Source of the DNA: Mayamaea pseudoterrestris
Lineage: Eukaryota
DNA length: 64,000 nt
Reading direction: 5' to 3'
NCBI GenBank assembly: GCA_027923505.1
Contig: BROI01000001.1
Location: forward strand, 2,170,001 to 2,234,000
A model generated the notes under the pieces. That model made no database searches. It was not told the DNA's origin and worked only from the letters and a program-made list of their open reading frames with translations. Positions 9,001 to 61,192 of this stretch are shown in pieces; within the stretch, counting starts at the first letter, position 1, and each line of letters begins with the position of its first letter. Both the position numbers and the translations under genes were made by a program.

Positions 9001-9034
9001 GCCATCCCCTGAGACACTAGCCAGGCATACCATC
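1..9034. repeat. 169-bp tandem satellite, homogeneous subfamily A, array 1 (~53 monomers, runs off the window start)
   Basis: Exact 169-bp period. Each monomer carries the dyads TGGTGACAA-G-TTGTCACCA and CCTACAG-N6-CTGTAGG. Most monomers read AATGTCCCGG. The array ends at the TG of an LTR at 9035. Confidence 0.99.
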
Positions 9035-9363
9035 TGACACAATATTATTGAGTTGAGTTGACCTGCGTCTTATGACAAGACGGTTAGCTACCTGTGTTTT
9101 GTATGCATTTAATCCTGTGCAGGGTTGAGTCACACTTGTGACCGAATCCTCACATACATGAGTGAAATCGCTGACGATCGAGGCGTGAACCTCGACCGTG
9201 AACCCAGTGAGAATGAGAAAGAAGCGCACGAGTAGAGTAGCGAGTAACATGCACTATTCTAGCAATTGAGTTTGTTTGTTTGCTTTACGCTGGACGAAGA
9301 GGTTGATCGCTCCGAGTCCATTGTAGTCGCTGGAATAAAGGTTCGTCTGATATTATCGTGTCA
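9035..9363 (+). repeat. 5' LTR of copia family A, copy A1 (329 bp)
   Basis: TGACAC...GTGTCA termini; near-identical to 26418-26746, 30981-31309 and 37376-37704. Confidence 0.97.
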
Positions 9364-9378
9364 GATTAACAGTCTTGC
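9364..9378 (+). promoter_or_regulatory. Putative primer-binding site of family A (GATTAACAGTCTTGC); also at 26747 and 31310
   Basis: Lies immediately 3' of the LTR. Its reverse complement GCAAGA-CTGTTAA-TC has the form of a tRNA-Asn(GUU) anticodon arm. Confidence 0.7.
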
Positions 9379-12300: not shown

Positions 12301-13672
12301 TGTTCGCCGTGGCAAGAAGAGCCTGCTGACGCAGGGATACCCACTGAGAACCGAGAGAAGCGCTCCTGGCGCAAGACTTAATTCGAGACATGGGCGTCCC
12401 GACTTGCCTATTAGCGATAATCATGAGTGCAGCTCGGAAGCAAAGTTGAAACCTGTTGCGATTCTACGCGATTCAGGACTAACAGAGCGAGCCCGACAGA
12501 ACCAGAATCGCCGAGCGCCGATCCGGCCAGGCCAGTCATCAGTCCAGAACATCATGAACCGCATCGGGCGCACTCCGCTGGAGCCTGGCTCGCGCGCGCT
12601 GCACGTAATTGCCTTGGTCAACAATCTGGCGACCGAGTCCCTCAACTGGGAAGACCCCACTGAAGCCGCCAACCGAGTAATACCTCGACATTACTGCCGG
12701 CTTCCTGCAGTTCGCCCTGGGAACGAGTCCTGTACTGGGCTGGAGCCGACGCAGCCGCCGACATTTCCTCACACACATAGGAAGCAGCAGGACGCTGGGC
12801 CGGCATTGCAGAGAACAAGGGTGACATCCCTCGCGTACTCAAGTTCGATCCGATCGAATCCGGAATGGTTGTTGTCCGATCCAACGCCCGCCCTTTCTCC
12901 GAAGGACAACCTACGCGCTGAAGCTGAAAGCGCCCTGAACCTGAGTCCGAACGACCATTGTTCCGCGGAACCTGTCTTCGACGCACGCCCGCGCGCAGAA
13001 CGAGTGAAACTGGGTCGACGAGTTTGGACGATGAGTATGACCTCCAGCGTCGGTCCGGTGTTTGAACACGACCTACACCGAGCCCACAGCGCCTGACTGG
13101 GGAACGCGGGATGAAGACGCATTCACGCTTGGAAAAGGGCCGAAGTTAGCCGGGTTTGGATCCCGACGGACTCCATGCCGCCCTTTACTCGCTGAACTGA
13201 TGGGACGCGACTGTCCTTCTTGACGAGGAAGACGGCTCCACGCGACGCTACAAGGTTATCGAGCAAACTAAACGATCGCGATGAAGCCAACCACAAGATC
13301 ATCAAGTTCCACTGAGCCTCGGCGACGGGCGACGTCGACGAGCTTATTACCTACAACGAACTAGCCACCTGTGCGAGCGGCAAGATTCTTTACGACTGGG
13401 GACGATGACAACGACGACCAGTACCACAAGTTTGGGATTTCATTGACGGACATGAGGGTCCACTGACACAAGCCGACGCCACGCGCACCGCGGCTCATCC
13501 CACAACTTGCTCATACACTGGGCAAATGAAGTAGGAAGACCTGGGAGCCACTGCATTGATTATCAAGTCCCATTCCTGTGACCGCTGCCGAGTATGGCAA
13601 GCGCAAGGGTATGCTGGAAAAGGATGGATGGAAGCGCTGAGGCGCATGGCAGGACACACTAAACTGTTCCGA

Positions 13673-19929: not shown

Positions 19930-20640
19930 TCCATTCTGGCTTGATTTGGGCGTACTCATGGCTCTAGGTATGAGCATTTGAAAATCACAGCATCTGCTGG
20001 CTGAGACTGGTGACAAGTTGTCACCAATCGCATTGCAGTCTACTGAGGGACCAGCCAGGCAATCCATCTTGTAGCGCACCTGAAATAAGGATGTTAGCAC
20101 CATTCTGGCTTGATTTGGGCAAACAGATGGCTCTAGGTATGGGCATTTGAATATTACGGCATCTGCTGGCTGAGACTGGTGACACGTTGCCACCAATCGC
20201 ATTGCAGTCTACTGAGGGACCAGCCAGTCAACGTATCTTGTAGCGCATCTGAAAAAAGATGTTAGCACCATTCTAGCTTGATTTGGGCATACGCATGGCT
20301 CTAGGTATGGGCATTTGAAAAGCCTGTCATCTGCTGGCTGAGACTGGTGACAAGTTGTCACCAATCACATTGCCATCTACTGAGGGATTAGCCAGGCAAT
20401 TCATCTTGTAGCGCATTTGAAATAAGGATGTTAGCACGATTCTGGCTTGATTTGGGCATGCGCATGGCTCTAGGTATGGGCATTGAAAATCACGGCATCT
20501 GCTGGCTGAGACTGGTGACAAGTTGTCAACAATCACATTGCAGTCTACTGAGGGACCAGCACAGGCAATTCATCGTGTAGCGCACCTGATAAAAAGATGT
20601 TAGCACCATTCTATTTGATTTGAAATACACATGGCTCTAG
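19930..20640 (+). repeat. 169-bp satellite, diverged subfamily B (~4 monomers), same orientation as the A arrays
   Basis: Keeps GAGACTGGTGACAAGTTGTCACCAA but has GGCTCTAGGTATGGGC and TGGCTTGATTTGGG variants. Switches abruptly to subfamily A at ~20641. Confidence 0.92.
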
Positions 20641-23600
20641 GTTGAGACTGGTGACAAGTTGTCACCAAATACATTGCCATCCCCTGAGACACCAGCCAAG
20701 CCTACCATCTTGTAGCGCAGCCTGAATAATGATGTTGGCACCATTCTGGTGTATTTGGGGCACCTACAGGGCTTGCTGTAGGGGCGTTTGAATGTCACGG
20801 CATCTGTGGGTTGAGACTGGTGACAAGTTGTCACCAAATACATTGCCATCCCCTGAGACACCAGCCAAGCCTACCATCTTGTAGCGCAGCCTGAATAATG
20901 ATGTTGGCACCATTCTGGTGTATTCTGGGCACCTACAGGGCTTGCTGTAGGGGCGTTTGAATGTCACGGCATCTGCGGGATGAGACTGGTGACAAGTTGT
21001 CACTAAATACATTGCCATCCCCTGAGACACCAGCCAAGCCTACCATCTTGTAGCGTAGCCTGAATAATGATGTTGGCACCATTCTGGTGTATTTTGGGCA
21101 CCTACAGGGCTTGCTGTAGGGGCATTTGAATGTCACGGCATCTGCGGGCTGAGACTGGTGACAAGTTGTCACCATATGCATTGCCATCCCCTGAGACACC
21201 CGCCAAGCCTACCATCTTGTAGCGCAGCCTGAATAATGATGTTGGCACCATTCTGGTGTATTTTGGGCACCTACAGGGCTTGCTGTAGGGGCGTTTGAAT
21301 GTCACGGCATCTGCGGGCTGAGACTGGTGACAAGTTGTCACCAAATACATTGCGATCCCCTGAGACACCAGCCAAGCCTACCATCTTGTAGCTCAGCCTA
21401 AATAATGATGTTGGCACCATTCTGGTGTATTTTGGGCACCTACAGGGCTTGCTGTAGGGGCGTTTGAATGTCACGGCATCTGCGGGGCTGAGACTGGTGA
21501 CAAGTTGTCACCAAATACATTGCCATCCCCTGAGACACCAGCCAAGCCTACCATCTTGTCGCGCAGCCTGAATAATGATGTCGGCACCATTCTGGTGTAT
21601 TTTGGGCACCTACAGGGCTTGCTGTAGGGGCGTTTGAATGTCACAGCAACTGCGGGATGAGACTGGTGACAAGTTGTCACCAAATACATTGCCATCCCCT
21701 GAGACACCAGCCAAGCCTACCATCTTGTAGCGCAGCCTGAATAATGATGTTGGCACCATTCTGGTGTATTTTGGGCACCTACAGGGCTTGCTGTAGGGGC
21801 GTTTGAATGTCACGGCATCTGCAGGATGAGACTGGTGACAAGTTGTCACCAAATACATTTCCATCCCCTGAGACACCAGCCAAGCCTACCATCTTGTAGC
21901 GCAGCCTGAATAATGATGTTGGCACCATTCTGGTGTATTTTGGGCACCTGCAGGGCTTGCTGTAGGGGCATTTGAATGTCACGGCGTCTGCGGGATGAGA
22001 CTGGTGACAAGTTGTCACCAAATACATTGCCATCCCCTGAGACACCAGCCAAGCCTACCATCTTGTAGCGCAGCCTGAATAATGATGTTGGCACCATTCT
22101 GGTGTATTTTGGGCACCTACAGGGCTTGCTGTAGGGGCGTTTGAATGTCACAGCAACTGCGGGCTGAGACTGGTGACAAGTTGTCACCAAATACATTGCC
22201 ATCCCCTGAGACACCAGCCAAGCCTACCATCTTGTAGCGCAGCCTAAATAATGATGTTGGCACCATTCTGGTGTATTTTGGGCACCTACAGGGCTTGCTG
22301 TAGGGGCATTTGAATGTCACGGCAACTGCGGGCTGAGACTGGTGACAAGTTGTCACCAAATACATTGCCATCCCCTGAGACACCAGCCAAGCCTACCATC
22401 TTGTAGCGCAGCCTGAATAATGATGTTGGCACCATTCTGGTGTATTTTGGGCACCTACAGGGCTTGCTGTAGGGGCGTTTGAATGTCACGGCATCTGCAG
22501 GATGAGACTGGTGACAAGTTGTCACCAAATACATTGCCATCCCCTGAGACACCAGCCAAGCCTACCATCTTGTAGCGCAGCCTGAATAATGATGTTGGCA
22601 CCATTCTGGTGTATTTTGGGCACCTACAGGGCTTGCTGTAGGGGCATTTGAATGTCACGGCAACTGCGGGCTGAGACTGGTGACAAGTTGTCACCAAATA
22701 CATTGCCATCCCCTGAGACACCAGCCAAGCCTACCTTCTTGTAGCGCAGCCTGAATAATGATGTTGGCACCATTCTGGTGTATTTTGGGCACCTACAGGG
22801 CTTGCTGTAGGGGCGTTTGAATGTCACGGCATCTGCGGGCTGAGACTGGTGACAAGTTGTCACCAAATACATTGCGATCCCCTGAGACACCAGCCAAGCC
22901 TACCATCTTGTAGCGCAGCCTGAATAATGATGTTGGCACCATTCTGGTGTATTTTGGGCACCTACAGGGCTTGCTGTAGGGGCGTTTGAATGTCACGGCA
23001 TCTGCAGGATGAGACTGGTGACAAGTTGTCCCCAAATACATTGCCATCCCCTGAGACACAGCCAAGCCTACCATCTTGTAGCGCAGCCTGAATAATGATG
23101 TTGGCACCATTCTGGTGTATTTTGGGCACCTACAGGGCTTGCTGTAGGGGCGTTTGAATGTCACGGCATCTGTGGGCTGAGACTGGTGACAAGTTGTCAC
23201 CAAATACATTGCCATCCCCTGAGACACCAGCCAAGCCTACCATCTTCTAGCGCAGCCTGAATTATGATGTTGGCACCATTCTGGTGTATTTTGGGCACCT
23301 ACAGGGCTTGCTGTAGGGACGTTTGAATGTCATGGCATCTGCGGGCTGAGACTAGTGACAAGTTGTCACCAAATACGTTGCCATCCCCTGGGACACCAGC
23401 CAAGCCTACCATCTTGTAGCGCAGCCTGAATAATGATGTTGGCACCATTCTGGTGTATTTTGGGCACCTACAGGGCTTGCTGTAGGGGCGTTTGAATGTC
23501 ACGGCATCTGCGGGCTGAGACTGGTGACAAGTTGTCACCAAATACATTGCCATCCCCTGAGACACCAGCCAAGCCTACCATCTTGTAGCGCAGCCTGATT

Positions 23601-25269
23601 AATGATGTTGGCACCATTCTGGTGTATTTTGGGCACCTACAGGGCTTGCTGTAGGGGCATTTGAATGTCACGGCATCTGCGGGATGAGACTGGTGACAAG
23701 TTGTCACCAAATACATTGCCATCCCCTGAGACACCAGCCAAGCCTACCTTCTTTTAGCGCAGCCTGAATAATGATGTTGGCACCATTCTGGTGTATTTTG
23801 GGCACCTAGAGGGCTTGCTGTAGGGGCGTTTGAATGTCACGGCATCTGCGGGATGAGACTGGTGACAAGTTGTCACCAAATACATTGCCATCCCCTGAGA
23901 CACCAGCCAAGCCTACCATCTTGTAGCGCAGCCTGAATAATGATGTTGGCACCATTCTAGTGTATTTTGGGCACCTACAGGGCTTGCTGTGGTGGCGTTT
24001 CAATGTCACGGCATCTGCGGAATGAGACTGGTGACAAGTTGTCACCAAATACATTGCCATCCCCTGAGACACCAGCCAAGCCTACCATCTTGTAGCGCAG
24101 CCTGAATAATGATGGTGGCACCATTCTGGTGTATTTTGGGCACCTACAGGGCTTGCTGTAGGGGCGTTTGAATGTCACGGCATCTGCGGGCTGAGACTGG
24201 TGACAAGTTGTCACCAAATACATTGCCATCCCCTGAGACACCAGCCAAGCCTACCATCTTGTAGCGCAGCCTGAATAATGATGTTGGCACCATTCTGGTG
24301 TATTTTGGGCACCTACAGGGCTTGCTGTAGGGGCGTTTGAAAGTCACGGCATCTGTGGGCTGAGACTGGTGACAAGTTGTCACCAAATACATTGCCATCC
24401 CCTGAGACATTAGCCAAGCCTACCATCTTGTAGCGCAGCCTGAATAATGATGTTGGCACCATTCTGGTGTATTTTGGGCACCTACAGGGCTTGCTGTAGG
24501 GGCATTTGAATGTCACGGCATCTGCGGGATGAGACTGGTGACAAGTTGTCACCAAATACATTGCCATCCCCTGAGACACCAGCCAAGCCTACCATCTTGT
24601 AGCGCAGCCTAAATAATGATGTTGGCACCATTCTGGTGTATTTTGGGCACCTACAGGGCTTGCTGTAGGGGCGTTTGAATGTCACGGCAACTGCGGGCTG
24701 AGACTGGTGACAAGTTGTCACCAAATACATTGCCATCCCCTGAGACACCAGCCAAGCCTACCATCTTGTAGCGCAGCCTAAATAATGATGTTGGCACCAT
24801 TCTGGTGTATTTTGGGCACCTACAGGGCTTGCTGTAGGGGCGTTTGAATGTCACGGCAACTGCGGGCTGAGACTGGTGACAAGTTGTCACCAAATACATT
24901 GCCATCCCCTGAGACACCAGCCAAGCCTACCATCTTGTAGCGCAGCCTGAATAATGATGTTGGCACCATTCTGGTGTATTTTGGGCACCTACAGGGCTTG
25001 CTGTAGGGGCATTTGAATGTAACGGCATCTGCGGGCTGAGACTGGTGACAAGTTGTCACCAAATACATTGCCATCCCCTGAGACACCAGCCAAGCCTACC
25101 ATCTTGTAGCGCAGCCTGAATAATGATGTTGGCACCATTCTGGTGTATTTTGGGCACCTACAGGGCTTGCTGTAGGGGCGTTTGAATGTCACGGCATCTG
25201 CGGGATGAGACTGGTGACAAGTTGTCACCAAATACATTGCCATCCCCTGAGACACCAGCCAAGCCTACC
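20641..25269 (+). repeat. 169-bp satellite subfamily A, array 2 (~27 monomers)
   Basis: 169-bp period; most monomers read AATGTCACGG. Ends at the TG of LTR C. Confidence 0.99.
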
Positions 25270-25463
25270 TGTTATGAATACGCACTCGCCATGACTCATT
25301 AATATCCTATTCTGTCCACCATCCATTTCATCGCTGTGCTCAGCCACTCGATTAGCAAGAGTCTCCTGGCGCTTACCGCCATGATCTCGTTAATGTAACA
25401 ATTCAACGTTATTGAACTAGTCTGCTTCGAGTGTCTGCTGTAGTACCTTGTGGCCCTTCAACA
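25270..25463 (+). repeat. Putative 5' LTR of copia family C (194 bp)
   Basis: Sharp junction with the satellite, TGTT...AACA termini, followed by a gag-like ORF. There is no partner LTR, so the 3' boundary is inferred. Confidence 0.75.
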
Positions 25464-25539
25464 GAATTGTTACATCTTACCCACCCTTCTCTTCGCTTTA
25501 CTCATCTTTCCCTGCTCCGTGCCTCCAAAGCTCCTCACG

Positions 25540-26307
25540 ATGTTGATCAAACTTCCTGAGTTGACGCCCTTGCCCGCCCTCACCACCGAACCCAACTATG
25601 CTAATCTGCTTCTACTCAACAATGCTCTATGTGAACAAGCCCGCAAGATCCCTCTCCGTAATGGCGACGAAACTTTCGGTCACGATTTCCTTTGCCTCCA
25701 ACCTGCTCAATACGCCTACCGTCACCCCGACACTCCTTTCGTCATGCCTGCTCAGCCAGCCGCTCTTGCTGATGCCAATGACGACATGCCTACCAACGCC
25801 CTTACCGAACGCAATCGCAAGTACAAAGATGCGCTTAACGATTTCAACACGATGCACCTTGCTGACGTAGCCCTCAAAGCGCTCATCATTGCTGCCGTCC
25901 CCGAAACTTACTACGCGGTTTTGAAACACCCCCTTCACAACTACGCCACCATCACTACTCTCCAACTGCTCACGCACTTGTTACTTACCTACGCCAACAT
26001 CACTGGTCCCGAACAAGATGAAAACGTTCAGCGCCTCCATGCCCCCTGGGATCCCAACGAACCCATCGAAACCATTTGGAGTCGCATCACTGAAGTTACC
26101 GATTTTACCATCGCAGCCGGCGAAACACTCAGTGAAAGAACCATCGTCCGCTACACACTTACCGTCCTCGAAAACAGTGGTGTCTTCAACGAAGCTGTTG
26201 CACGATTTGAACACGAATTCTGCCACACCCATTCCGGCCGTCCAGGCCAAGACCGGCACAAGCCCTCGCCAAGGCCACGGATTGCCCTGAACTACACCAT
26301 CCCCTGA
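25540..26307 (+). CDS. Gag-like protein of a diatom-type copia element (family C), truncated by the family A block
   Basis: EPNYANL...GHDFLCL.PAQY...AAVPETY...LLTHL..TY..IT...PWDPNEPIETIW resembles diatom copia Gag. This is recognition from memory, not a search result. Confidence 0.7.
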   Translation: MLIKLPELTPLPALTTEPNYANLLLLNNALCEQARKIPLRNGDETFGHDFLCLQPAQYAYRHPDTPFVMPAQPAALADANDDMPTNALTERNRKYKDALNDFNTMHLADVALKALIIAAVPETYYAVLKHPLHNYATITTLQLLTHLLLTYANITGPEQDENVQRLHAPWDPNEPIETIWSRITEVTDFTIAAGETLSERTIVRYTLTVLENSGVFNEAVARFEHEFCHTHSGRPGQDRHKPSPRPRIALNYTIP

Positions 26308-26417
26308 GACATCAGCGTACTGCAGCTCTTCCATCTGTACGCGCAGCCTAATGGCACCACCACCACGCCTGCTCAGCTTTCAACGCCAGCGCCCACCTTA
26401 CACCTGCCACACGCTCC

Positions 26418-29400
26418 CGACACAATATTATTGAGTTGAGTTGACCTGCGTCTTATGACAAGACGGTTAGCTACCTGTGTTTTGTATGCATTTAATCCTG
26501 TGCAGGGTTGAGTCACACTTGTGACCGAATCCTCACATACATGAGTGAAATCGCTGACGATCGAGGCGTGAACCTCGACCGTGAACCCAGTGAGAACGAG
26601 AAAGAAGCGCACGAGTAGAGTAGCGAGTAACATGCACTATTCTAGCAATTGAGTTTGTTTGTTTGCTTTACGCTGGACGAAGAGGTTGATCGCTCCTAGT
26701 CCATTGTAGTCGCTGGAATAAAGGTTCGTCTGATATTATCGTGTCAGATTAACAGTCTTGCTAGCTTGTCTTGACCTGAGAGAGCTGTGCGAAAGAGAGA
26801 GAGTGAAAGAATCGAGAAATTGAGAGAGAAAGAGCAGATTCCTTGCGGCGTCGTCAATCCGAATACTTGGCACGAGCGCGTAGAACAGGATCGTATAAGG
26901 CTCGACCGCATTGAGAGCGGTTGTTGTGTGAGAAAGGACTTGCGGAAGCGAGGTATTCACTATCATGGTGTCGATTACTGCGGAAGCTTTGCAGCTTCTC
27001 TGCACGAACGTTTTCGGACGAGACATCCAAGAAGCGTTCTTGTTTTGGAATGTAACCACCACGACCCAGATGTTGAGATTGACCAAGGAGCAACTTGAAG
27101 CCCCCTACTGGGTCGACAGAGCCGCCATTCAAGCTGGCGTTGGACAACCTGAAGGTGCGCAACCCGACGATGCGCCGCCGGGCGACGAGCCGGCCGAAGA
27201 ACCGGCCGAAGAGCAAGAAGCCGCCGCCCCAGTACGATACGAAACGACACTAGCACCAGTCTACGTGAACCTTGTCCTCGATGCATGCGAATGGTTTACC
27301 ATGCACGACGGACCCCCGAACACCAAGAAATGGGCGTTGCTGGATTTAGGCAAGCTCGAGCGATACCAAGCGGTTCTCGCGGAACAAGAAATCGCGCGGA
27401 AGCGTGAAGAAGGATACTACGTACTCGAGTCCAAGAAGAAGCAAGCCGAGCTACTTGCCAAGCAACTCGAAAATGAGACCATCAAGGCTGAGAAGGCCGA
27501 AAAGGAAGAAGATGCCAAGGGTCGTTTCTCGAACCTCAAGACGAAACGAGACTACAAGGACTACAAAACGTTCCAACATCCCCACGCGTGGTTGAGTTGG
27601 AGCGCGTCTACCAAGGCAATCGCCAAGCTCCATGGCTGTTCTAACGTGCTCGACAGCAAGTACGTACCAGTCACGGAAGAAGAGAAGGAAGAATTCGAGA
27701 ATCAGTGTATCTTCAGGTACACTTCGTTTCGCAATTGCCTCGAAGTGGGCTGATACCAGTCGCTCTTGATGAAGAGCAGCGACAAGTCTGACGCTCAAGG
27801 CGTCTATCGCGAACTCGCGACCAAGTTTGGTTCCGGCGAGTTAGCTACCATCCAAGCGAATGAACTGCAAGCCAAGCTTGCGACGATTCGCCTAGATTCG
27901 ACCTGGACGAAAGGACACTACAAGTTCCTAAACTACATCGAACAGCTCATGAAGAATCTCGAAGAGTTCCGTCCTGGAGTGACGGATGACAAGAAGAAGT
28001 ACTACTGGCTCCGAGCTGCAGTGGAGGGCGACGAAGAATTCGGCCCCACGTGCACGACGTTCGACCAGCACCTGCAATTTGAACGACGACGCATCATCAG
28101 TGCAAATGGTGATCCAGATGCCGTCGTGACGGAAGATTATGACTGTCTTTTTCGACATGTTGTCGCAGCAAGGCTTTGCGCGTCGACAACAAGAACGCCA
28201 AGCTGAATAAGGGCAAGAAGAACGCCGACCGCCAAGCGAACAACGCGAACACTTCCGGCAAGGACGTGGTAATGGACGCGGTTCCGGTCGTGGCGGAGGA
28301 GCGGGCGGCGAAGGCGGACGCGGGGTGGGCGAGACGGTGGACGCGGTTCCCAAGTGAGCCGCGGTTCCGGAGGACGAGGCTCTTCCGCGCCACTACCAGC
28401 AGCCGGTACGCAAGCGCATCGGGAACGATTCCCTGGCGATTATCTGAACTTTGAACAGTTGTTGCAGAACCCCTGGTCGTACATGTCGTATGAACGACTC
28501 GGCCGACTTAACGAGGACGAATACGCTCAGCTCATGGCTCGACGTGAAGCCGTCCCAAGACCCGCCACCACAAGACGCGCGAACAACAGTAACCGTGCGA
28601 ATAACCAGCAGTCACAAGCGGCTGCATCGGTGCCTGGTACAATCTTGTATCAGAACGACGCTGTCTCGATCGCCCCGACGACAGCCACTCAAGGTGCACC
28701 GGATGACATGATTAGATCTTTCCTTGCGAACGCCGCGTCGTCTCGCACTCAAGCTGCGAATAACACCCAGCAAGAGTTTATGGGAAGCGACGGCCGTCGG
28801 TACCGCGCAATGGTATCGGTGCGCTACACTGTGAATCGAAGCTTCGCAGAAGACCCGCCAAGGATCACTGATTGACGGCGGTGCGAACGGTGGACTCGCT
28901 GGAAGCGATATGAGAATCTTGAGTACTACCAACCACACGTGTAACGTGACAGGTTTGAGCGACCACACGGTTCGCGACCTTCAAGTCGGAACTGGCGTCG
29001 CATTGATTGAGACTCGGACTGGACCCATTATCGGGCAGTTCAACCAGTATGCTTTGTACGACGGTGCTGAATCCATTCATGCTCCGTCGCAGCTTCGGTC
29101 GTTCGGTCATCTGATCGACGACGTCCCTCGCTCCCAGAATGGAACACAAGCCATTGTCACCAGTTGTGGCAAGACCATCCCCTTGGCGATCCGCGACGGT
29201 TTGCCTCGAATGGATATGCGTCCGCCGACGGACGCAGAGTTGGAAATGTATCCGACGGTCATTTTCTCTGCGGACACCCTTTGGGATCCGGCGGACTTAG
29301 ACAATGAATGGAACGAAGAAGAACTTGAGTTTAATCGTCACCTCGACGAATTAGAAGAAACCCACGGTTTCGTCGACGCCCGCATGGATGACTTCGGCGA

Positions 29401-30980
29401 CGCCACCTACCGGAACAACATGAACTCAGTGGAACGTGTGGTGCAGTATGTCGATCGCAATCAGGCTGATACGACGCGCCAAGCCAATGCACGACGCATA
29501 ATGCCACAAGAACCTGACTACCAAGCGCTTCGACCCTACCTTGGCTACACGCCACTTGAACGAGTCAAGCGCACCATTAAGAATACGACACAGCTTTTCC
29601 GTGCATCGGCACACACCCCATTTCGCCAACACTTTAAGTCGCGATTCCCTGCCGCCAATGTGGTTCGTTTCCATGACGATACGGCGACAGATACCTGGTT
29701 TACCCAGGTACCCGCCTTTAACGACGGAATCCGCGGCCATGGCGGATGCAAGATGATGCAACTGTTCGTCGGCAAGAAGAGTCTGCTGACGAGGGGATAC
29801 CCACTGAGAACCGAGAGTGACATGCCCATGGCGCTCGAAGACTTCATTCGAGACATTGGCGCTCCCGATTTGCTCATTAGCGATAACTCGCGAGTGCAGC
29901 TCGGGAAGCAAGTTGAAACCTTGTTGCGATTCTACGCGATTCGTGACCAACAGAGCGAGCCCGGATACCAGAACCAGAACCCTGCCGAGCGTCGCATCCA
30001 AGAAGTCAAGTCATCAGTCCAAAACATCATGAACCGTACGGGCGCACCCGCTGGAGCCTGGCTCCTATGCGCGCTGTACGTAATCGCCTTATTCAACAAT
30101 CTGGCGACCGAGTCCCTCAACTGGAAGACCCCTACTGAAGCCGCCTTCAACCGAGTACCCGACATTTTGCCGTTCCTGCAGTTCAAGTTCTGGGAACGAG
30201 TCCTGTACGAAGCTGGAGCCGACGAGCCGCCGACATTTCCTCACACCAAGGAAGCAGCAGGACGCTGGGTCGGCATTGCAGAGAACAAGGGTGACATCCT
30301 CACGTACCAAGTTCGATCCGATCGGACTGGAATGGTTGTCGTCCGATCCAACGTTCGTCCCTTCTCCGAAGGGCGTAACCTACGCGCTGAAGCTGAAAGC
30401 GCTCCTGAACCCGAGTCCGAACGACCACTGTTCGCGGAACCTGTCTTCGACGCGCGTCCCGCGCGTGAACGAGCCCAAGTCGAAACTGTCGACGAGTTTG
30501 ACGATGATTATGACCTAGTCGGTCCGGTGTTTGAACACGACCTTACACCGACCCCAGCGCCTGATTCTGGGGGAACCGTGGATGAAGACGCATTCACGTT
30601 GGAAAGCGCTGCCGAGTTAGCCGGTTTGGATCCCGACGGACCCATGCCGTCCTTTACTCCGGCTGAACTGATGGGACGCACTGTCCTTCTTGACGAGGAA
30701 GACGGCTCCACGCGACGTTACAAGGTTATCGAGCAACTGAACGATCGCGATGAAGCCAACCACAAGATTATCAAGTTTCGATTGAGTCTCGGCGACGGCG
30801 ACGTCGACGAGCTTATTACCCACCGAACCAGCCACCTTTGCGGAATACGCAGATCTGTACGACGACGATGACAACGACGACCAGTACTACAAGTTTGATT
30901 TCATTGACGGACATGAAGGTCCACTGACACAAGCCCACGCTACGATCGCGGCTCATCCTACAAGGCTTGCTGATTAAATG
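26418..30980 (+). mobile_element. Copia family A copy A2: LTR (26418-26746)-gag-PR-INT, truncated tandem duplicate of A3
   Basis: Near-identical to 30981-35540 at an offset of 4563 bp. Protease LIDGGANGG; integrase TDTWF...ISDN...QNPAERRI. Confidence 0.96.
28910..30871 (+). CDS. Pol fragment (protease C-terminal part and integrase) of copy A2
   Basis: 653-aa ORF with DDE integrase motifs; identical translation to 33472-35433. Confidence 0.9.
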   Translation: MRILSTTNHTCNVTGLSDHTVRDLQVGTGVALIETRTGPIIGQFNQYALYDGAESIHAPSQLRSFGHLIDDVPRSQNGTQAIVTSCGKTIPLAIRDGLPRMDMRPPTDAELEMYPTVIFSADTLWDPADLDNEWNEEELEFNRHLDELEETHGFVDARMDDFGDATYRNNMNSVERVVQYVDRNQADTTRQANARRIMPQEPDYQALRPYLGYTPLERVKRTIKNTTQLFRASAHTPFRQHFKSRFPAANVVRFHDDTATDTWFTQVPAFNDGIRGHGGCKMMQLFVGKKSLLTRGYPLRTESDMPMALEDFIRDIGAPDLLISDNSRVQLGKQVETLLRFYAIRDQQSEPGYQNQNPAERRIQEVKSSVQNIMNRTGAPAGAWLLCALYVIALFNNLATESLNWKTPTEAAFNRVPDILPFLQFKFWERVLYEAGADEPPTFPHTKEAAGRWVGIAENKGDILTYQVRSDRTGMVVVRSNVRPFSEGRNLRAEAESAPEPESERPLFAEPVFDARPARERAQVETVDEFDDDYDLVGPVFEHDLTPTPAPDSGGTVDEDAFTLESAAELAGLDPDGPMPSFTPAELMGRTVLLDEEDGSTRRYKVIEQLNDRDEANHKIIKFRLSLGDGDVDELITHRTSHLCGIRRSVRRR

Positions 30981-33471
30981 GGACACAATATTATTGAGTT
31001 GAGTTGACCTGCGTCTTATGACAAGACGGTTAGCTACCTGTGTTTTGTATGCATTTAATCCTGTGCAGGGTTGAGTCACACTTGTGACCGAATCCTCACA
31101 TACATGAGTGAAATCGCTGACGATCGAGGCGTGAACCTCGACCGTGAACCCAGTGAGAACGAGAAAGAAGCGCACGAGTAGAGTAGCGAGTAACATGCAC
31201 TATTCTAGCAATTGAGTTTGTTTGTTTGCTTTACGCTGGACGAAGAGGTTGATCGCTCCTAGTCCATTGTAGTCGCTGGAATAAAGGTTCGTCTGATATT
31301 ATCGTGTCAGATTAACAGTCTTGCTAGCTTGTCTTGACCTGAGAGAGCTGTGCGAAAGAGAGAGAGTGAAAGAATCGAGAAATTGAGAGAGAAAGAGCAG
31401 ATTCCTTGCGGCGTCGTCAATCCGAATACTTGGCACGAGCGCGTAGAACAGGATCGTATAAGGCTCGACCGCATTGAGAGCGGTTGTTGTGTGAGAAAGG
31501 ACTTGCGGAAGCGAGGTATTCACTATCATGGTGTCGATTACTGCGGAAGCTTTGCAGCTTCTCTGCACGAACGTTTTCGGACGAGACATCCAAGAAGCGT
31601 TCTTGTTTTGGAATGTAACCACCACGACCCAGATGTTGAGATTGACCAAGGAGCAACTTGAAGCCCCCTACTGGGTCGACAGAGCCGCCATTCAAGCTGG
31701 CGTTGGACAACCTGAAGGTGCGCAACCCGACGATGCGCCGCCGGGCGACGAGCCGGCCGAAGAACCGGCCGAAGAGCAAGAAGCCGCCGCCCCAGTACGA
31801 TACGAAACGACACTAGCACCAGTCTACGTGAACCTTGTCCTCGATGCATGCGAATGGTTTACCATGCACGACGGACCCCCGAACACCAAGAAATGGGCGT
31901 TGCTGGATTTAGGCAAGCTCGAGCGATACCAAGCGGTTCTCGCGGAACAAGAAATCGCGCGGAAGCGTGAAGAAGGATACTACGTACTCGAGTCCAAGAA
32001 GAAGCAAGCCGAGCTACTTGCCAAGCAACTCGAAAATGAGACCATCAAGGCTGAGAAGGCCGAAAAGGAAGAAGATGCCAAGGGTCGTTTCTCGAACCTC
32101 AAGACGAAACGAGACTACAAGGACTACAAAACGTTCCAACATCCCCACGCGTGGTTGAGTTGGAGCGCGTCTACCAAGGCAATCGCCAAGCTCCATGGCT
32201 GTTCTAACGTGCTCGACAGCAAGTACGTACCAGTCACGGAAGAAGAGAAGGAAGAATTCGAGAATCAGTGTATCTTCAGGTACACTTCGTTTCGCAATTG
32301 CCTCGAAGTGGGCTGATACCAGTCGCTCTTGATGAAGAGCAGCGACAAGTCTGACGCTCAAGGCGTCTATCGCGAACTCGCGACCAAGTTTGGTTCCGGC
32401 GAGTTAGCTACCATCCAAGCGAATGAACTGCAAGCCAAGCTTGCGACGATTCGCCTAGATTCGACCTGGACGAAAGGACACTACAAGTTCCTAAACTACA
32501 TCGAACAGCTCATGAAGAATCTCGAAGAGTTCCGTCCTGGAGTGACGGATGACAAGAAGAAGTACTACTGGCTCCGAGCTGCAGTGGAGGGCGACGAAGA
32601 ATTCGGCCCCACGTGCACGACGTTCGACCAGCACCTGCAATTTGAACGACGACGCATCATCAGTGCAAATGGTGATCCAGATGCCGTCGTGACGGAAGAC
32701 TATGACTGTCTTTTTCGACATGTTGTCGCAGCAAGGCTTTGCGCGTCGACAACAAGAACGCCAAGCTGAATAAGGGCAAGAAGAACGCCGACCGCCAAGC
32801 GAACAACGCGAACACTTCCGGCAAGGACGTGGTAATGGACGCGGTTCCGGTCGTGGCGGAGGAGCGGGCGGCGAAGGCGGACGCGGGGTGGGCGAGACGG
32901 TGGACGCGGTTCCCAAGTGAGCCGCGGTTCGGAGGACGAGGCTCTTCCGCGCCACTACCAGCAGCCGGTACGCAAGCGCATCGGGAACGATTCCCTGGCG
33001 ATTATCTGAACTTTGAACAGTTGTTGCAGAACCCCTGGTCGTACATGTCGTATGAACGACTCGGCCGACTTAACGAGGACGAATACGCTCAGCTCATGGC
33101 TCGACGTGAAGCCGTCCCAAGACCCGCCACCACAAGACGCGCGAACAACAGTAACCGTGCGAATAACCAGCAGTCACAAGCGGCTGCATCGGTGCCTGGT
33201 ACAATCTTGTATCAGAACGACGCTGTCTCGATCGCCCCGACGACAGCCACTCAAGGTGCACCGGATGACATGATTAGATCTTTCCTTGCGAACGCCGCGT
33301 CGTCTCGCACTCAAGCTGCGAATAACACCCAGCAAGAGTTTATGGGAAGCGACGGCCGTCGGTACCGCGCAATGGTATCGGTGCGCTACACTGTGAATCG
33401 AAGCTTCGCAGAAGACCCGCCAAGGATCACTGATTGACGGCGGTGCGAACGGTGGACTCGCTGGAAGCGAT

Positions 33472-35433
33472 ATGAGAATCTTGAGTACTACCAACCACAC
33501 GTGTAACGTGACAGGTTTGAGCGACCACACGGTTCGCGACCTTCAAGTCGGAACTGGCGTCGCATTGATTGAGACTCGGACTGGACCCATTATCGGGCAG
33601 TTCAACCAGTATGCTTTGTACGACGGTGCTGAATCCATTCATGCTCCGTCGCAGCTTCGGTCGTTCGGTCATCTGATCGACGACGTCCCTCGCTCCCAGA
33701 ATGGAACACAAGCCATTGTCACCAGTTGTGGCAAGACCATCCCCTTGGCGATCCGCGACGGTTTGCCTCGAATGGATATGCGTCCGCCGACGGACGCAGA
33801 GTTGGAAATGTATCCGACGGTCATTTTCTCTGCGGACACCCTTTGGGATCCGGCGGACTTAGACAATGAATGGAACGAAGAAGAACTTGAGTTTAATCGT
33901 CACCTCGACGAATTAGAAGAAACCCACGGTTTCGTCGACGCCCGCATGGATGACTTCGGCGACGCCACCTACCGGAACAACATGAACTCAGTGGAACGTG
34001 TGGTGCAGTATGTCGATCGCAATCAGGCTGATACGACGCGCCAAGCCAATGCACGACGCATAATGCCACAAGAACCTGACTACCAAGCGCTTCGACCCTA
34101 CCTTGGCTACACGCCACTTGAACGAGTCAAGCGCACCATTAAGAATACGACACAGCTTTTCCGTGCATCGGCACACACCCCATTTCGCCAACACTTTAAG
34201 TCGCGATTCCCTGCCGCCAATGTGGTTCGTTTCCATGACGATACGGCGACAGATACCTGGTTTACCCAGGTACCCGCCTTTAACGACGGAATCCGCGGCC
34301 ATGGCGGATGCAAGATGATGCAACTGTTCGTCGGCAAGAAGAGTCTGCTGACGAGGGGATACCCACTGAGAACCGAGAGTGACATGCCCATGGCGCTCGA
34401 AGACTTCATTCGAGACATTGGCGCTCCCGATTTGCTCATTAGCGATAACTCGCGAGTGCAGCTCGGGAAGCAAGTTGAAACCTTGTTGCGATTCTACGCG
34501 ATTCGTGACCAACAGAGCGAGCCCGGATACCAGAACCAGAACCCTGCCGAGCGTCGCATCCAAGAAGTCAAGTCATCAGTCCAAAACATCATGAACCGTA
34601 CGGGCGCACCCGCTGGAGCCTGGCTCCTATGCGCGCTGTACGTAATCGCCTTATTCAACAATCTGGCGACCGAGTCCCTCAACTGGAAGACCCCTACTGA
34701 AGCCGCCTTCAACCGAGTACCCGACATTTTGCCGTTCCTGCAGTTCAAGTTCTGGGAACGAGTCCTGTACGAAGCTGGAGCCGACGAGCCGCCGACATTT
34801 CCTCACACCAAGGAAGCAGCAGGACGCTGGGTCGGCATTGCAGAGAACAAGGGTGACATCCTCACGTACCAAGTTCGATCCGATCGGACTGGAATGGTTG
34901 TCGTCCGATCCAACGTTCGTCCCTTCTCCGAAGGGCGTAACCTACGCGCTGAAGCTGAAAGCGCTCCTGAACCCGAGTCCGAACGACCACTGTTCGCGGA
35001 ACCTGTCTTCGACGCGCGTCCCGCGCGTGAACGAGCCCAAGTCGAAACTGTCGACGAGTTTGACGATGATTATGACCTAGTCGGTCCGGTGTTTGAACAC
35101 GACCTTACACCGACCCCAGCGCCTGATTCTGGGGGAACCGTGGATGAAGACGCATTCACGTTGGAAAGCGCTGCCGAGTTAGCCGGTTTGGATCCCGACG
35201 GACCCATGCCGTCCTTTACTCCGGCTGAACTGATGGGACGCACTGTCCTTCTTGACGAGGAAGACGGCTCCACGCGACGTTACAAGGTTATCGAGCAACT
35301 GAACGATCGCGATGAAGCCAACCACAAGATTATCAAGTTTCGATTGAGTCTCGGCGACGGCGACGTCGACGAGCTTATTACCCACCGAACCAGCCACCTT
35401 TGCGGAATACGCAGATCTGTACGACGACGATGA
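33472..35433 (+). CDS. Pol fragment (protease and integrase) of copy A3
   Basis: DDE integrase motifs, preceded in frame by LIDGGANGGLAGSD. Confidence 0.9.
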   Translation: MRILSTTNHTCNVTGLSDHTVRDLQVGTGVALIETRTGPIIGQFNQYALYDGAESIHAPSQLRSFGHLIDDVPRSQNGTQAIVTSCGKTIPLAIRDGLPRMDMRPPTDAELEMYPTVIFSADTLWDPADLDNEWNEEELEFNRHLDELEETHGFVDARMDDFGDATYRNNMNSVERVVQYVDRNQADTTRQANARRIMPQEPDYQALRPYLGYTPLERVKRTIKNTTQLFRASAHTPFRQHFKSRFPAANVVRFHDDTATDTWFTQVPAFNDGIRGHGGCKMMQLFVGKKSLLTRGYPLRTESDMPMALEDFIRDIGAPDLLISDNSRVQLGKQVETLLRFYAIRDQQSEPGYQNQNPAERRIQEVKSSVQNIMNRTGAPAGAWLLCALYVIALFNNLATESLNWKTPTEAAFNRVPDILPFLQFKFWERVLYEAGADEPPTFPHTKEAAGRWVGIAENKGDILTYQVRSDRTGMVVVRSNVRPFSEGRNLRAEAESAPEPESERPLFAEPVFDARPARERAQVETVDEFDDDYDLVGPVFEHDLTPTPAPDSGGTVDEDAFTLESAAELAGLDPDGPMPSFTPAELMGRTVLLDEEDGSTRRYKVIEQLNDRDEANHKIIKFRLSLGDGDVDELITHRTSHLCGIRRSVRRR

Positions 35434-35547
35434 CAACGACGACCAGTACTACAAGTTTGATTTCATTGACGGACATGAAGGTCCACTGACACAAGCCCAC
35501 GCTACGATCGCGGCTCATCCTACAAGGCTTGCTGATTAAATGGACGA

Positions 35548-37026
35548 TTGTCGAACGTCCGCCTGATATGCTGTGACGCGCGCGAGCAGCGCAAGGGTAT
35601 GCTGGAAAAGGATGGATGGAAGCGCTTGAGGCGCATGGCAGGACGCACTAAACTGTTTAACCGCATGTGCAAGGCTGCAAAGAAGAACCGTGTCCAAGAA
35701 GCGCGTTTCAAGTTTGGCGTTCAAGTTCCTAATACCTGGAAGGAAGCGAACCGCCTCGACGCTGCTAATGGAAACACCCTGTGGGCTGACGCCGTCAAGA
35801 CTGAGATGGAGCAGCTACACGAGTACGACACTTTCATCGACAAGGGCATCGGTGCCTTCATGGAAAGTGACTGGAAGCGTATCAACGCGCATCTTGTTTT
35901 CGACTGCAAGAACGATCTACGACGTAAGGCCCGGCTCGTCGCCGGGGGACATTTGACCGCTCCGCCCAAGGACTCCGCCTACTCCGGCGTTGTATCTATG
36001 CGAAGCATTCGAACCATAGCACTGTTAGCTGAACTGAACGACCTCAAGTTTTGGGCTGCCGATGTCGGTAACGCCTACCTCGAGGCCAAGACCAAGGAAA
36101 AGGTCTACATTGTTGCCGGTCCCGAGTTTGGACCATTGGAAGGCCATACCTTGGTCATCTACAAGGCACTTTACGGATTGCGCACTTCTGGCGCGCGTTG
36201 GCATGAGCACTTTGCCGACACACTCCGCGACATTGGATTCTACCCAAGCTACGCGGATCCTGACGTCTGGATGAAAGACTGTGGCACTCACTACGAGTAC
36301 GTCGGCGTGTTCGTCGACGATCTGGCTATGGCCATGAAAGATCCACAAGCCTTCACGGACCTCCTCAAGGACAAGTACAAGTACAAGTTGAAGGGCGTCG
36401 GCGACATCAAGTATCACCTTGGAGCCGACTTCTATCGTGATCCCGATGGAACCCTCTGCATGAGCGCGAAGACCTACGTCGGTCGCATGCTCAAGAACTA
36501 CGAGACCATGTTTGGCGAGAAGCCACGCAAGCGCAAGTCACCGCTTGACGACGGGGACCACCCCGAACTTGACCTTACCGAAGAGCTGGATGCCCGTGGC
36601 ATTCAACAGTACCAGTCTCTTATCGGTGCCCTCCAGTGGGCAGTGACCCTATGTCGACTTGACATTCATTGTGCCGTAATGACACTTGGCCGATTCCGCT
36701 GCGCCCCGCGCCGCGGACACCTGGACCGAGCCAAGCGAGTCTGCGGTTACCTAGCTGAGTACCCTGATGCGGCGATTCGTTTCCGGACGAAGATCGTCGA
36801 TCACGGGGAACCTACCAAGTATGATTGGTTGCAATCGGTCTACGGCAACTCAAGCGAAGAGCTTCCGTGGAACATGCCGATCCCGAAGGGCAAGCCTGTG
36901 CAACTAACTACCTTTATGGACGCGAACCTGTACCATGATTACACTACTGGACCGCCCAATGGGAGTCCTGCATTTCCTGAACCAGACGCCCGTCGAATGG
37001 TTCTGCAAGCGTCAGAATACTATTGA
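35548..37026 (+). CDS. Reverse transcriptase and start of RNase H of copy A3
   Basis: Copia-type RT motifs. RNase H continues through frameshifts to ~37364. Confidence 0.93.
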   Translation: MSNVRLICCDAREQRKGMLEKDGWKRLRRMAGRTKLFNRMCKAAKKNRVQEARFKFGVQVPNTWKEANRLDAANGNTLWADAVKTEMEQLHEYDTFIDKGIGAFMESDWKRINAHLVFDCKNDLRRKARLVAGGHLTAPPKDSAYSGVVSMRSIRTIALLAELNDLKFWAADVGNAYLEAKTKEKVYIVAGPEFGPLEGHTLVIYKALYGLRTSGARWHEHFADTLRDIGFYPSYADPDVWMKDCGTHYEYVGVFVDDLAMAMKDPQAFTDLLKDKYKYKLKGVGDIKYHLGADFYRDPDGTLCMSAKTYVGRMLKNYETMFGEKPRKRKSPLDDGDHPELDLTEELDARGIQQYQSLIGALQWAVTLCRLDIHCAVMTLGRFRCAPRRGHLDRAKRVCGYLAEYPDAAIRFRTKIVDHGEPTKYDWLQSVYGNSSEELPWNMPIPKGKPVQLTTFMDANLYHDYTTGPPNGSPAFPEPDARRMVLQASEYY

Positions 37027-37704
37027 GACTGCAAAGTACGGATCCGAGTTCGCGCGCCAAGCCGCGACGGAACAGATTACCGTGGTTTGGGATTCACTGC
37101 TCGCAGTTGGGATCTTGCGTGGACCAGACGTTCGCGACGTGTCAAGGCGTCAACGCCGCCACACTTTAGCCCGCATGCGCCGACTACCACCGAGTTCGCG
37201 AGGCCATTGCAAGCAATGTTCTGTACTTTGAGCACATCTTCGGCAAGCAGAACGTCGCCGACGTTCTTACCAAGTTCTTGCCGCATGCCACGTTCCAACC
37301 CCTGATTATTCCGATTCTTTTCAGGAAGGGTGATACGGCAAACCGATCGTTGTCACAAGCCTAGATCAAGGGGGATGACACAATATTATTGAGTTGAGTT
37401 GACCTGCGTCTTATGACAAGACGGTTAGCTACCTGTGTTTTGTATGCATTTAATCCTGTGCAGGGTTGAGTCACACTTGTGACCGAATCCTCACATACAT
37501 GAGTGAAATCGCTGACGATCGAGGCGTGAACCTCGACCGTGAACCCAGTGAGAACGAGAAAGAAGCCCACGAGTAGAGTAGCGAGTAACATGCACTATTC
37601 TAGCAATTGAGTTTGTTTGTTTGCTTTACGCTGGACGAAGAGGTTGATCGCTCCGAGTCCATTGTAGTCGCTGGAATAAAGGTTCGTCTGATATTATCGT
37701 GTCA

Positions 37705-37774
37705 AAAATGGTGCTAACTTTCAGGTGCGCTACGAGATGCATTGACTGGCTGGTCAATTAGTAGACTGCATGTA
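37705..37774 (-). repeat. Partial 169-bp subfamily B monomer, reverse orientation
   Basis: AATGGTGCTAACTTTCAGGTGCGCTAC...GGTCAATTAGTA nearly matches 41311-41379. Confidence 0.85.
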
Positions 37775-40242: not shown

Positions 40243-41380
40243 TGTAAATTTTCAAGTGCCCATACCTAGAGCCATGTGTATGCCCAAATCAAGCCTGAAT
40301 GGTGCTAACATCCTTATTTCAGGTGCGTTACAAGAAAGTTGACTGGTTGGTCCCTCAGTTGACTGCAATGTGACTGGTGAGAAGTTCTCACCAGTCTCAG
40401 CCAGCAGATGCCGTAATATTCAAATGCCCATACCTAGAGCCACATGTATGCCCAAATCAAGCCTGAATGGTGCTAACATCCTTATTTCAGGTGCGCTACA
40501 AGAAAGTCTGACTGGCCGGTCCCTCGGTTGACTGCAATGTGACTGGTGAGAAGTTCTCACCAGTCTCAGCCAGCAGATGCCGTAATTTTTTATGCCCATA
40601 CCTAGAGCCACGTGTATGCCCAAATTAAGCCAGAATGGTGCTAACATCCATATTCTAGGTGCGCTACAAGAATATTTGACTGGATGGTCCCTCGGTAGAC
40701 TGCAGTGTGATTGGTGACGACTTGTCACCAGTCTCAGCCAGCAGATGCCATTATTTTCAAATGCCCATACCTAGAGCAATGTGTATGCCCAAATCAAGCC
40801 AGAATGGTGCTAACATGCATAATTCAAGTGCTCTACCAAGAAATTTTGACTGGCTTGTGGCTCAGTAGATGGCAATGTGATTGGTGACAACTTGTCACCA
40901 GTCTCAGCCAGCAGATGCCATAATTTTCTAATGCCCATACCTAGAGCCACGTGTATGCCCAAATCATGCCAGAATGGTGCTAACATGCCTAAGTCAGGTG
41001 CGCTACAAGAAATTTTGACCGGCTTGTGGCTCAGTAGATGGCAATGTGATTGGTGACAACTTGTCACCAGTCTTAGCCAGCAGATGCCATAATTTTCTAA
41101 TGCCCATACCTAGAGCCACGTGTATGCCCAAATCATGCCAGAATGGTGCTCACATGCTTAATTCAGGTGCGCTACAAGAAATTTTGACTGGCTTGTGGCT
41201 CAGTAGATGGCAATGTGATTGGTGACAACTTGTCACCAGTCTCAGCCAGCAGATGCCATAATTTTCATATGCCCATACCTAGAGCCATGTGTATGCCCAA
41301 ATCAAGCCAGAATGGTGCTAACTTTCAGGTGCGCTACAAGATGCATTGACTGGCTGGTCAATTAGTACACTGCGTGTAGT
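40243..41380 (-). repeat. 169-bp satellite subfamily B, reverse orientation (~7 monomers)
   Basis: Reverse complement of the 19930-20640 type: TGCCCATACCTAGAGCC...TTGTCACCAGTCTCAGCC. Confidence 0.95.
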
Positions 41381-61144: not shown

Positions 61145-61192
61145 GACTGCAACCAAGACGACATCAAACGATATGGACAAGGAGCCATTGGA

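Follow-up and report, generated by a model that had tools for sequence, protein, structure and literature searches.

A copia-type retrotransposon lineage of diatom type with a conserved pairing between LTR and leader suggestive of Tf1-like self-priming

A truncated retrotransposon fragment beside a satellite array

The window, by which we mean the whole stretch of 64,000 nucleotides that was analyzed, is rich in satellites and LTR elements, with a 169-bp satellite filling positions 1-9035 and 19931-25269 and a further element (element B, with a 329-bp LTR) running from 26418 to 37704 in the order LTR-internal-LTR-internal-LTR. A unique stretch begins at 25270 with TGTTATG, exactly where the 169-bp satellite stops. 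The window contains a single copy of this stretch (25270-26418) and a single occurrence of each of the motifs at its LTR-like start and end. Its features and those of its flanks are the following:

19931-25269, no strand assigned: 169-bp satellite array, adjoining the fragment on its 5' side
25270-25463, + strand: putative 5' LTR of family C, 194 bp, with TGTT...AACA ends, single copy in the window
25393-25404, + strand: 5' arm ATGTAACAATTC, putative self-primer, with homologous arms in relatives, at or near the start of R under the model set out below
25405-25463, + strand: spacer of 59 nt, the rest of R-U5 under the same model, containing the TTGAA/TTCAA pairing
25464-25475, + strand: 3' arm GAATTGTTACAT, putative primer binding site (PBS), starting at the first base after the LTR-like end, without TGG
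25540-26220, + strand: N-terminal part of Gag, ~226 residues, with an ATG at 25540 and homology ending at 26220
26297-26351, no strand assigned: degenerate piece of the 169-bp satellite, ~76% identical to many satellite units, located after the truncated fragment

Since the start and end motifs of the family C LTR are single-copy, the window holds no 3' LTR for it, and with a single copy of the 194-bp LTR the window alone cannot fix where that LTR ends. The open frame from 25540 continues to 26307 through unrelated sequence. Contigs of public DNA runs cease to fit beyond 26220, with a depth of zero from 26230, and a 206-nt contig in both X1 and X2 also fits only to 26220; at the 5' side, contigs of other satellite copies, among the loose ends listed, continue past 25269 as satellite. 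The ~950 bp from 25270 to ~26220 are a truncated, dead 5' fragment consisting of the LTR, the leader, and the N-terminal two-thirds of Gag, and not a functional element. The dead copy in the window has no consequence for the host, and its interest lies in a lineage-wide signature.

An inverted repeat joining LTR and leader

As the first-pass annotation had read from the letters, ATGTAACAATTC (25393-25404) and, 59 nt further on, GAATTGTTACAT (25464-25475) are reverse complements without a mismatch, and the match begins at the first base past ...AACA: the string ...CCCTTCAACA ends at 25463, directly before the 3' arm, and TGG is absent after it. The proposal that TTGAA and TTCAA could lengthen the stem also held, in that TTGAA (25412-25416) is complementary to TTCAA (25457-25461) and the minimum-free-energy fold takes up part of this inner pairing.

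When the 64-kb window was scanned for the 12-mer with at most one mismatch, 2 sites were found, both of them these arms, versus 0.44 expected, and at least 2 sites at the same tolerance were found in 11 of 100 shuffles. The window holds 18 perfect inverted repeats of 12 nt or more whose arms are 3-100 nt apart, of which 17 lie in a 348-bp satellite and the 25393/25464 pair is the sole one outside it; by our own estimate (64000 x 98 x 4^-12), ~0.4 such repeats would be expected at random per 64 kb. The z-score of the leader fold in the window is just -1.5 to -1.8. Taken by itself, the bare inverted repeat is not significant, being within chance expectation across 64 kb, and the weight of the argument rests on its position and on its conservation among relatives. 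Elements A and B of the same window do not have the arm pairing (complementarity of the LTR to the 30 nt that follow it reaches at most 7 nt in B and stays below 7 nt in A), which makes the trait lineage-specific and not common to every copia-like element of this genome.

Gag homology and copia-type gene order

Representative homologues of the Gag fragment number 1,822 with a threshold E-value of 0.001, 750 with 1e-10, and 3 with 1e-30, and their length is mostly 340-400 residues; the best matches span query residues 2-226, and the best E-value is 1.7e-49. Among named proteins, a hypothetical protein from the diatom Mayamaea pseudoterrestris comes closest, at 45% identity, and the nearest Atlas clusters, which are unnamed, belong to Bacillariophyta wherever a taxon is recorded. 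Searches with Pfam of the window open reading frames and 10 Gag homologues gave no relevant family, and a search for longer, fused homologues of Gag gave none at E-values up to 0.001. A PDB sequence search with the L003 pol gave no match, and scans of viral contigs with the Gag and integrase (INT) alignments gave no relatives.

Whole elements came from contigs fetched with Gag or integrase alignments. Within one protein, P0046 carries Gag, then a DTG protease (PR), then a D,D,E integrase. In L003, PR (~residue 110) and INT (~350-490) are followed by RVT_2 (927-1090) at 23.6 bits, below the cut-off; in the L015 pol, PR-INT at ~35-434 are followed by RVT_2 at 800-1034 with 37.7 bits (cut-off 31.6), and L001 has an RVT_2 match of 32.7 bits, above the cut-off. 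Gag-bearing relatives thus have INT before a reverse transcriptase (RT) of RVT_2 type, as is characteristic of Ty1/copia, and they place PR and INT before RVT_2 rather than following the Pol order PR-RT-RH-INT of Tf1/sushi (Ty3/gypsy chromovirus). The INT-before-RT order, which the first-pass annotation had listed as something to be confirmed, is found in both L003 and L015. Judged from these proteins, the lineage has copia (Pseudoviridae) gene order and is of diatom type; the window copy, whose own sequence ends within gag, is assigned to it through Gag homology only.

The helix in related elements

We examined 21 elements, namely the window copy and 20 loci, and a Gag HMM placed gag in 15 of the loci. 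Eleven of the loci with a placed gag have at least 150 nt upstream and, together with the window, provide 12 readable leaders. L017 and L020 were left out (no Gag match), and L014, L018, L019, L002, L005, L006, and L009 have no upstream sequence. The helix was found at the homologous place in 8 of the 12 readable leaders, decayed relics in 2, and none in 2. The eight helices are as follows:

Window: 5' arm ATGTAACAATTC; 3' arm GAATTGTTACAT; 12/12 paired; spacer 59 nt
L003, both copies in the contig: 5' arm ATTGCTAACAAC; 3' arm GTTGTTAGCAAT; 12/12 paired; spacer 38 nt
L010: 5' arm ATTCTGCTAAGAC; 3' arm GTCTTAGCAGAAT; 13/13 paired; spacer 36 nt
L011: 5' arm CTTTAGTTAGGAC; 3' arm GTCCTAACTAAAG; 13/13 paired; spacer 42 nt
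L013: 5' arm TTAATTATTTACGTC; 3' arm GACGTAAATAATTAA; 15/15 paired; spacer 54 nt
L001: 5' arm AATTTAGTTAGCAC; 3' arm GTGCCAACTAAATT; 13/14 paired; spacer 21 nt
L008: 5' arm TTTAGTTAGGAC; 3' arm GTCCCAACTAAA; 11/12 paired; spacer 23 nt
L015: 5' arm ATGTAAATC; 3' arm GATTTACAT; 9/9 paired, 9 bp only; spacer 40 nt

Among these 8 elements there are at least 6 different 3' arm sequences, each matched by the arm in its own LTR, and the spacers in the relatives span 21-54 nt. L004 retains a remnant of its 5' arm, and in L007 both arms survive, though decayed, each of the two copies being stop-ridden; the leaders of L012 and L016 have no helix, with L016 offering 171 nt upstream only. Gag identity of the relatives to the window is 21-29% (tblastn best segment or BLASTP; L013, recruited via integrase, stands outside this comparison). 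L017 contains an unrelated inverted-repeat cluster at 5688-5966.

Within the 38,951 nt of L001-L012, 4 places hold a perfect inverted repeat of 12 nt or more (spacer 10-100 nt), and all 4 are at the helix position. Inverted repeats with one mismatch are a common background, found at 11 other places in the same 38,951 nt, so L001 and L008 count mainly by the position of their helices.

For covariation, an alignment of the arms and spacer only was used, with 9 rows and 12 pairs; a 7-row version was also computed. Standard pairs make up 97.2% of the 107 cells, a percentage that follows in part from the choice of the arms as inverted repeats, in rows that are related by descent. Changes on both sides were found in 9 of the 12 pairs (35 cells). 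The covariation score was 0.898, versus 0.186 in shuffles, and was reached in none of 500 shuffles; when the partners were slid by 1-3 columns, it was 0.157 at most. The pair at the junction is C:G in all 9 aligned rows. An unexplained oddity is that L001 and L008 are mismatched at one and the same pair, A.C in both. In folding, the arm helix lies within the minimum-free-energy fold in 6 of 6 leaders (z-scores of -1.8 to -3.8). Together with the helix in 8 of 12 leaders, the two-sided changes and the shuffles bear out the conservation and covariation that the first-pass annotation had put forward as a check, and they point to pairing that is maintained in the relatives while the letters of the arms change.

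Position of the LTR end

Terminal inverted repeats are expected of integrase substrates. In all 8 elements with the helix, the 3' arm starts with G after ...(C/T)A, and the junctions (LTR and arm separated by a slash) read AACA/G in the window, L003, and L011, AATA/G in L008, L010, and L015, TTCA/G in L013, and TTTA/G in L001. LTR starts in the relatives can be recognized by a purine run followed by TG (GAGGG/TGTGTTG in L003, L001, and L015; GAGGG/TGTGTAG in L013), and the proposed LTR ends, when reverse complemented, read TGTTGA or TATTGA; the window has TGTTA...TCAACA, and its TGTT/AACA ends agree with the TGTTGA...TCAA(C/T)A ends of relatives. Because the ends mirror the LTR starts as a terminal inverted repeat, the LTR end is placed just before the 3' arm. 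L008 is the one locus with two recognizable LTRs (73% identical) and has the 5' arm in both; its 3' LTR runs into unrelated sequence and not into a 3' arm.

The summed contig depth in X1 is 4,600-10,500 over 25270-25469 and 200-1,300 over 25470-26229, falling ~10-fold between the bins 25430-25469 and 25470-25509, as is expected where LTRs outnumber internal parts. In X2, the high depth stops after 25389, with a hole at 25390-25429, and in X3 it stops after ~25429, with a drop within 25430-25469; the contig starts at 25438, 25448, and 25460, among those listed, give no single boundary. The LTR end at 25463 given by the first-pass annotation is favored by the TGTT...AACA repeat, the 3' LTR of L008, and the depth drop in X1, and the earlier depth stops in X2 and X3 make it less precise. 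This indirect evidence suggests an LTR end just before the 3' arm, at ~25463, with the exact base in family C being a predicted one. Among the variants listed for four runs, none falls inside either arm, and positions 25383, 25389/90, and 25533 onward vary, which lends weak support to constraint on the arms.

A self-priming model and its alternatives

The primer of minus-strand synthesis must anneal directly 3' of U5. The 3' arm is the sole sequence in that place, it lacks TGG, and it is partnered by the element's own LTR 21-59 nt upstream, which leads us to read the 5' arm as a self-primer. No TGG lies at or near the LTR end in the window, and a tRNA scan of the window returned 0 tRNA genes. 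Our preferred reading, which we hold to be probable though far from assured, is that the lineage self-primes its reverse transcription in the manner of Tf1, without a tRNA. This could proceed through the following steps: (i) transcription would start inside the LTR, either right at the 5' arm (25393-25404) or a few bases ahead of it; (ii) the 5' arm would fold back on the 12 nt just past the LTR (25464-25475), closing a hairpin over a short R-U5; (iii) the RNase H of the element would cut just past the final base of this arm (C25404), which is always paired to the G following the LTR; and (iv) the freed 3' OH would be extended through U5-R, giving minus-strand strong-stop DNA. The PBS would be rewritten from the primer in each cycle, and the arms would thereby stay complementary while their sequence drifts. 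Because of this recopying, self-priming would make LTR and PBS co-vary, and a host tRNA or tRNA half would not.

We infer the priming itself and the transcription start. For cleavage past the final arm base, extension across an R-U5 of 21-59 nt, and strand transfer, the template of the model is Tf1, in which bases 1-11 anneal to the PBS and the RNase H cut falls between bases 11 and 12, as described in PMC7175516. An R-U5 of 21-59 nt is very short and leaves little R for strand transfer, which counts against the model. In plants, self-priming has been called where the 5' LTR holds a complement of at least 10 bp to a region that starts 0-5 bp downstream of the LTR, a criterion given in PMC6317226; the window has 12/12 bp at offset 0 from the LTR-like end at 25463, a value that hinges on the indirectly supported LTR end.

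In the relatives, CTCATAA or a variant of it stands directly before the 5' arm, fitting TCAH(+1)W in L003, L010, L001, L013, and L015, and the TAGCTCATAA that precedes the arm is identical in L003 and L010 despite their different arms. The window has TCTCGTTA at the Inr-like site, with TCG and not TCA. TCAH(+1)W is the Inr-like motif proposed for diatoms in passages of PMC4686930, which also report TCAHW as frequent, occurring in 68% of P. tricornutum flanks. The motif before the arms is only a hint, consistent with a transcription start 0-5 nt before the arm.

A conserved helix may also have a role other than priming. As a structure of the leader or LTR, in RNA or DNA, it could serve in packaging, dimerization, or the control of translation or polyadenylation, or be a retrovirus-like U5-leader stem, with an unrecognized primer elsewhere. 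Covariation shows that a pairing is kept and not what it is for, the LTR end of family C is not base-exact, and fungal copia elements of the GalEa type carry a conserved hairpin of unknown role in the place of the PBS, according to the part of PMC5445492 that describes it. However, the 3' arm begins at the first base past the LTR-like end in 8 of 8 elements, which is the site of the minus-strand primer; no alternative TGG... PBS lies within a few bases in any of the 8; and the invariance of the junction C:G in 9 of 9 rows is as expected of a priming or cleavage site. A different role for the helix is thus unlikely in our judgment, albeit worth serious consideration.

It is improbable, given at least 6 different 3' arms in 8 elements that are each matched by their own LTR arm, that the 3' arm binds a primer RNA supplied by the host (half of a tRNA, an inner tRNA segment, or another small RNA) to which the LTR arm bears no more than a resemblance. 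A host primer would leave the LTR without co-variation, and no arm starts with TGG. Half-tRNA PBSs without TGG are nevertheless known in copia lineages, as listed in the relevant part of PMC6317226, and the A.C mismatch shared by L001 and L008 would be a curious feature of a PBS copied from its own arm. Coincidence within a dead fragment could account for the inverted repeat of the window itself: 64 kb should hold ~0.4 such repeats by chance, the z-score of the fold is just -1.5 to -1.8, and 11 of 100 shuffles give at least 2 sites; with the same architecture, in different letters, at the homologous place in 7 other elements, we consider this explanation very improbable. The self-priming of a copia-type lineage, as proposed by the first-pass annotation, is supported by an arm pairing conserved with compensatory changes, by copia gene order, by the lack of TGG, and by the lines that put the LTR end just before the 3' arm; the premise of novelty (discussed below) does not hold, and the copy in the window is a truncated fragment.

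Comparison with known priming systems

To our knowledge, self-priming has been proved experimentally for Tf1-type gypsy elements only. Like Tf1 of Schizosaccharomyces pombe (Tf1/sushi), the elements described here have a PBS that probably lacks a tRNA complement, and ~11-12 nt of their own predicted LTR transcript are complementary to the sequence directly past the LTR. Unlike in Tf1, the gene order is PR-INT-RT instead of PR-RT-RH-INT, the host is diatom-like, R-U5 is 21-59 nt, and the start and cleavage sites are predicted ones.

Within copia, self-priming has been predicted for the plant Ty1/copia lineage TAR, which includes Houba and Osr-1, in the portion of Neumann et al. (2019, PMC6317226) that deals with this lineage. 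The present elements resemble TAR in being copia-type with a PBS complement in their own 5' LTR, and by the self-priming criterion of the same paper the window has 12 bp at offset 0. They differ in belonging to another host kingdom and in having a Gag without a Pfam family, the likeness lying in the PBS criterion. The first-pass annotation had regarded such priming as not established for copia elements; as it had already been put forward for Houba and Osr-1 and predicted for TAR, going by the same portion of PMC6317226, this premise holds for experimental proof only.

The GalEa copia elements of fungi have no tRNA-type PBS and carry a "Conserved Hairpin Site" where the PBS should be. As described in PMC5445492, both arms of that site lie downstream of the LTR, the first forms a palindrome with the LTR's last base, and the LTR held no complement that the authors could find. 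Here, in contrast to that description, one arm is within the LTR-like region, 59 nt from its end, and in L008 it is present in both LTRs. Assignment to the GalEa-type "Conserved Hairpin Site" was considered and rejected, one arm being inside the LTR, with an LTR complement.

In the relevant entries of PMC6317226, half-tRNA PBSs correspond to 1/2 tRNA-Met in Osser, Bryco, and Gymco-II and to 1/2 tRNA-Ile in Bianca. The present elements share with these copia lineages, as those entries describe them, a PBS without TGG; there, the PBS corresponds to an inner stretch of a host tRNA, whereas here it matches, and co-varies with, the element's own LTR.

Like the CoDi elements (Maumus et al. 2009), the elements studied here are copia-like LTR elements with a diatom connection, in that their closest named Gag homologue is from a diatom, a likeness that does not imply membership. 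A term search of the CoDi paper (PMC2806351) turned up neither primer binding nor tRNA, and the single match to PBS there is a wash buffer. A search of the full text of the literature found no report of self-priming in diatom elements.

Implications

A self-priming copia lineage of diatom type would join a known class of mechanism and not be a new kind. That a large protist (diatom-type) lineage of copia gene order, with 1,822 Gag representatives, would use Tf1-like self-priming, with an invariant C:G, an R-U5 of ~21-59 nt, and a PBS rewritten in every cycle, is in our view an evenly balanced proposition. If it is true, self-priming either arose independently of Tf1/sushi and TAR or is an old trait of Pseudoviridae. 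The latter option would fit the suggestion, made in a passage of PMC3601003, that the ancestral LTR element used a hairpin at its 5' end for priming.

For the annotation of diatom LTR elements, the signature would be an LTR end in ...(C/T)A followed by G and a 9-15 nt complement located 21-59 nt upstream; standard searches for tRNA-type PBSs miss elements with such a signature. Since diatoms can be transformed, the model is directly testable. So far, self-priming in copia elements has been a sequence-based prediction in one plant lineage. A second copia lineage in an unrelated host, alike in architecture and with compensatory changes among its distant members, would, if the model is true, mean that tRNA-independent priming is wider in Pseudoviridae than has been assumed.

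Relatives: source contigs, gag-pol junction and arm mismatch

Eight of the loci of relatives, those fetched by integrase alignments (L013-L020), lie on contigs that carry this lineage's eukaryotic retrotransposon integrase and yet are catalogued under bacterial metagenome-assembled genomes; they are therefore likely to be binning contaminants. In one of these (L015), the two contig ends overlap with 141 identical nt: the assembler has wrapped a single LTR together with the internal part.

In all four relatives with intact genes (4/4), gag and pol lie in the same frame with one stop codon between them, and the pol frame extends into the LTR. The stop codons are positioned as follows:

L003, 1977-1979: gag/pol stop codon
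L001, 3403-3405: gag/pol stop codon
L013, 2089-2091: gag/pol stop codon
L015, 1372-1374: gag/pol stop codon

Because the two genes share a frame with a single stop between them, the sequence suggests that gag-pol expression in these relatives would occur by stop-codon readthrough and not by frameshifting.

In the arm helices of L001 (2183-2231) and L008 (1327-1373), an A.C mismatch occurs at the identical pair, the fifth from the junction, where the L011 helix has A-T. With a PBS that is copied anew from the arm in every cycle, a mismatch common to two relatives would not be expected.

Other LTR elements of the window

Two other LTR elements of the window are located as follows:

58534-63676: element A, a classical, intact-looking copia element
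26418-37704: element B, with an LTR-internal-LTR-internal-LTR layout
35544-37375: unique RT-bearing part of element B, followed by the third LTR

The LTRs of element A are 303 bp each and 100% identical, the element is bounded by a 5-bp target-site duplication (TCTCC), and Pfam matches were obtained to zf-CCHC, gag_pre-integrs and RVT_2 (141 bits). The sequence after its 5' LTR does not start with TGG; from the first base it forms a perfect 12-nt palindrome, TTTCTCGAGAAA (58837-58848), reminiscent of the "conserved hairpin site", likewise palindromic, that GalEa elements of fungi carry (PMC5445492).

Element B has 329-bp LTRs with the ends TGACAC...GTGTCA, the first of which opens with CG and not TG. 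Its 4,563-bp unit at 26419-30981 recurs at 30982-35543 with 99.96% identity, and an 87% copy lies at 9035-13511. Comparison of the two outer flanks (CTCCC and AAAAT) revealed no target-site duplication. A Pfam search of its ORFs gave no match, although an integrase-like D,D,E motif can be made out. Directly 3' of the LTR, at 26747-26761, is GATTAACAGTCTTGC, which lacks TGG and has no complement of at least 8 nt within the element B LTR. An Asn-type tRNA may match it through the anticodon arm, in the manner of a half-tRNA primer.

Satellite arrays

Long satellite arrays, with LTR elements interspersed, occupy five stretches of the window:

1-9035: satellite array
19931-25269: satellite array
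37774-40242: satellite array
40247-41322: satellite array
41415-42565: satellite array

The array periods are 169, 348 and 176 bp. The summed contig depth of the 169-bp unit is near 6 million in a public DNA run (X1), and this unit is therefore a major satellite of the genome, possibly a centromeric one.
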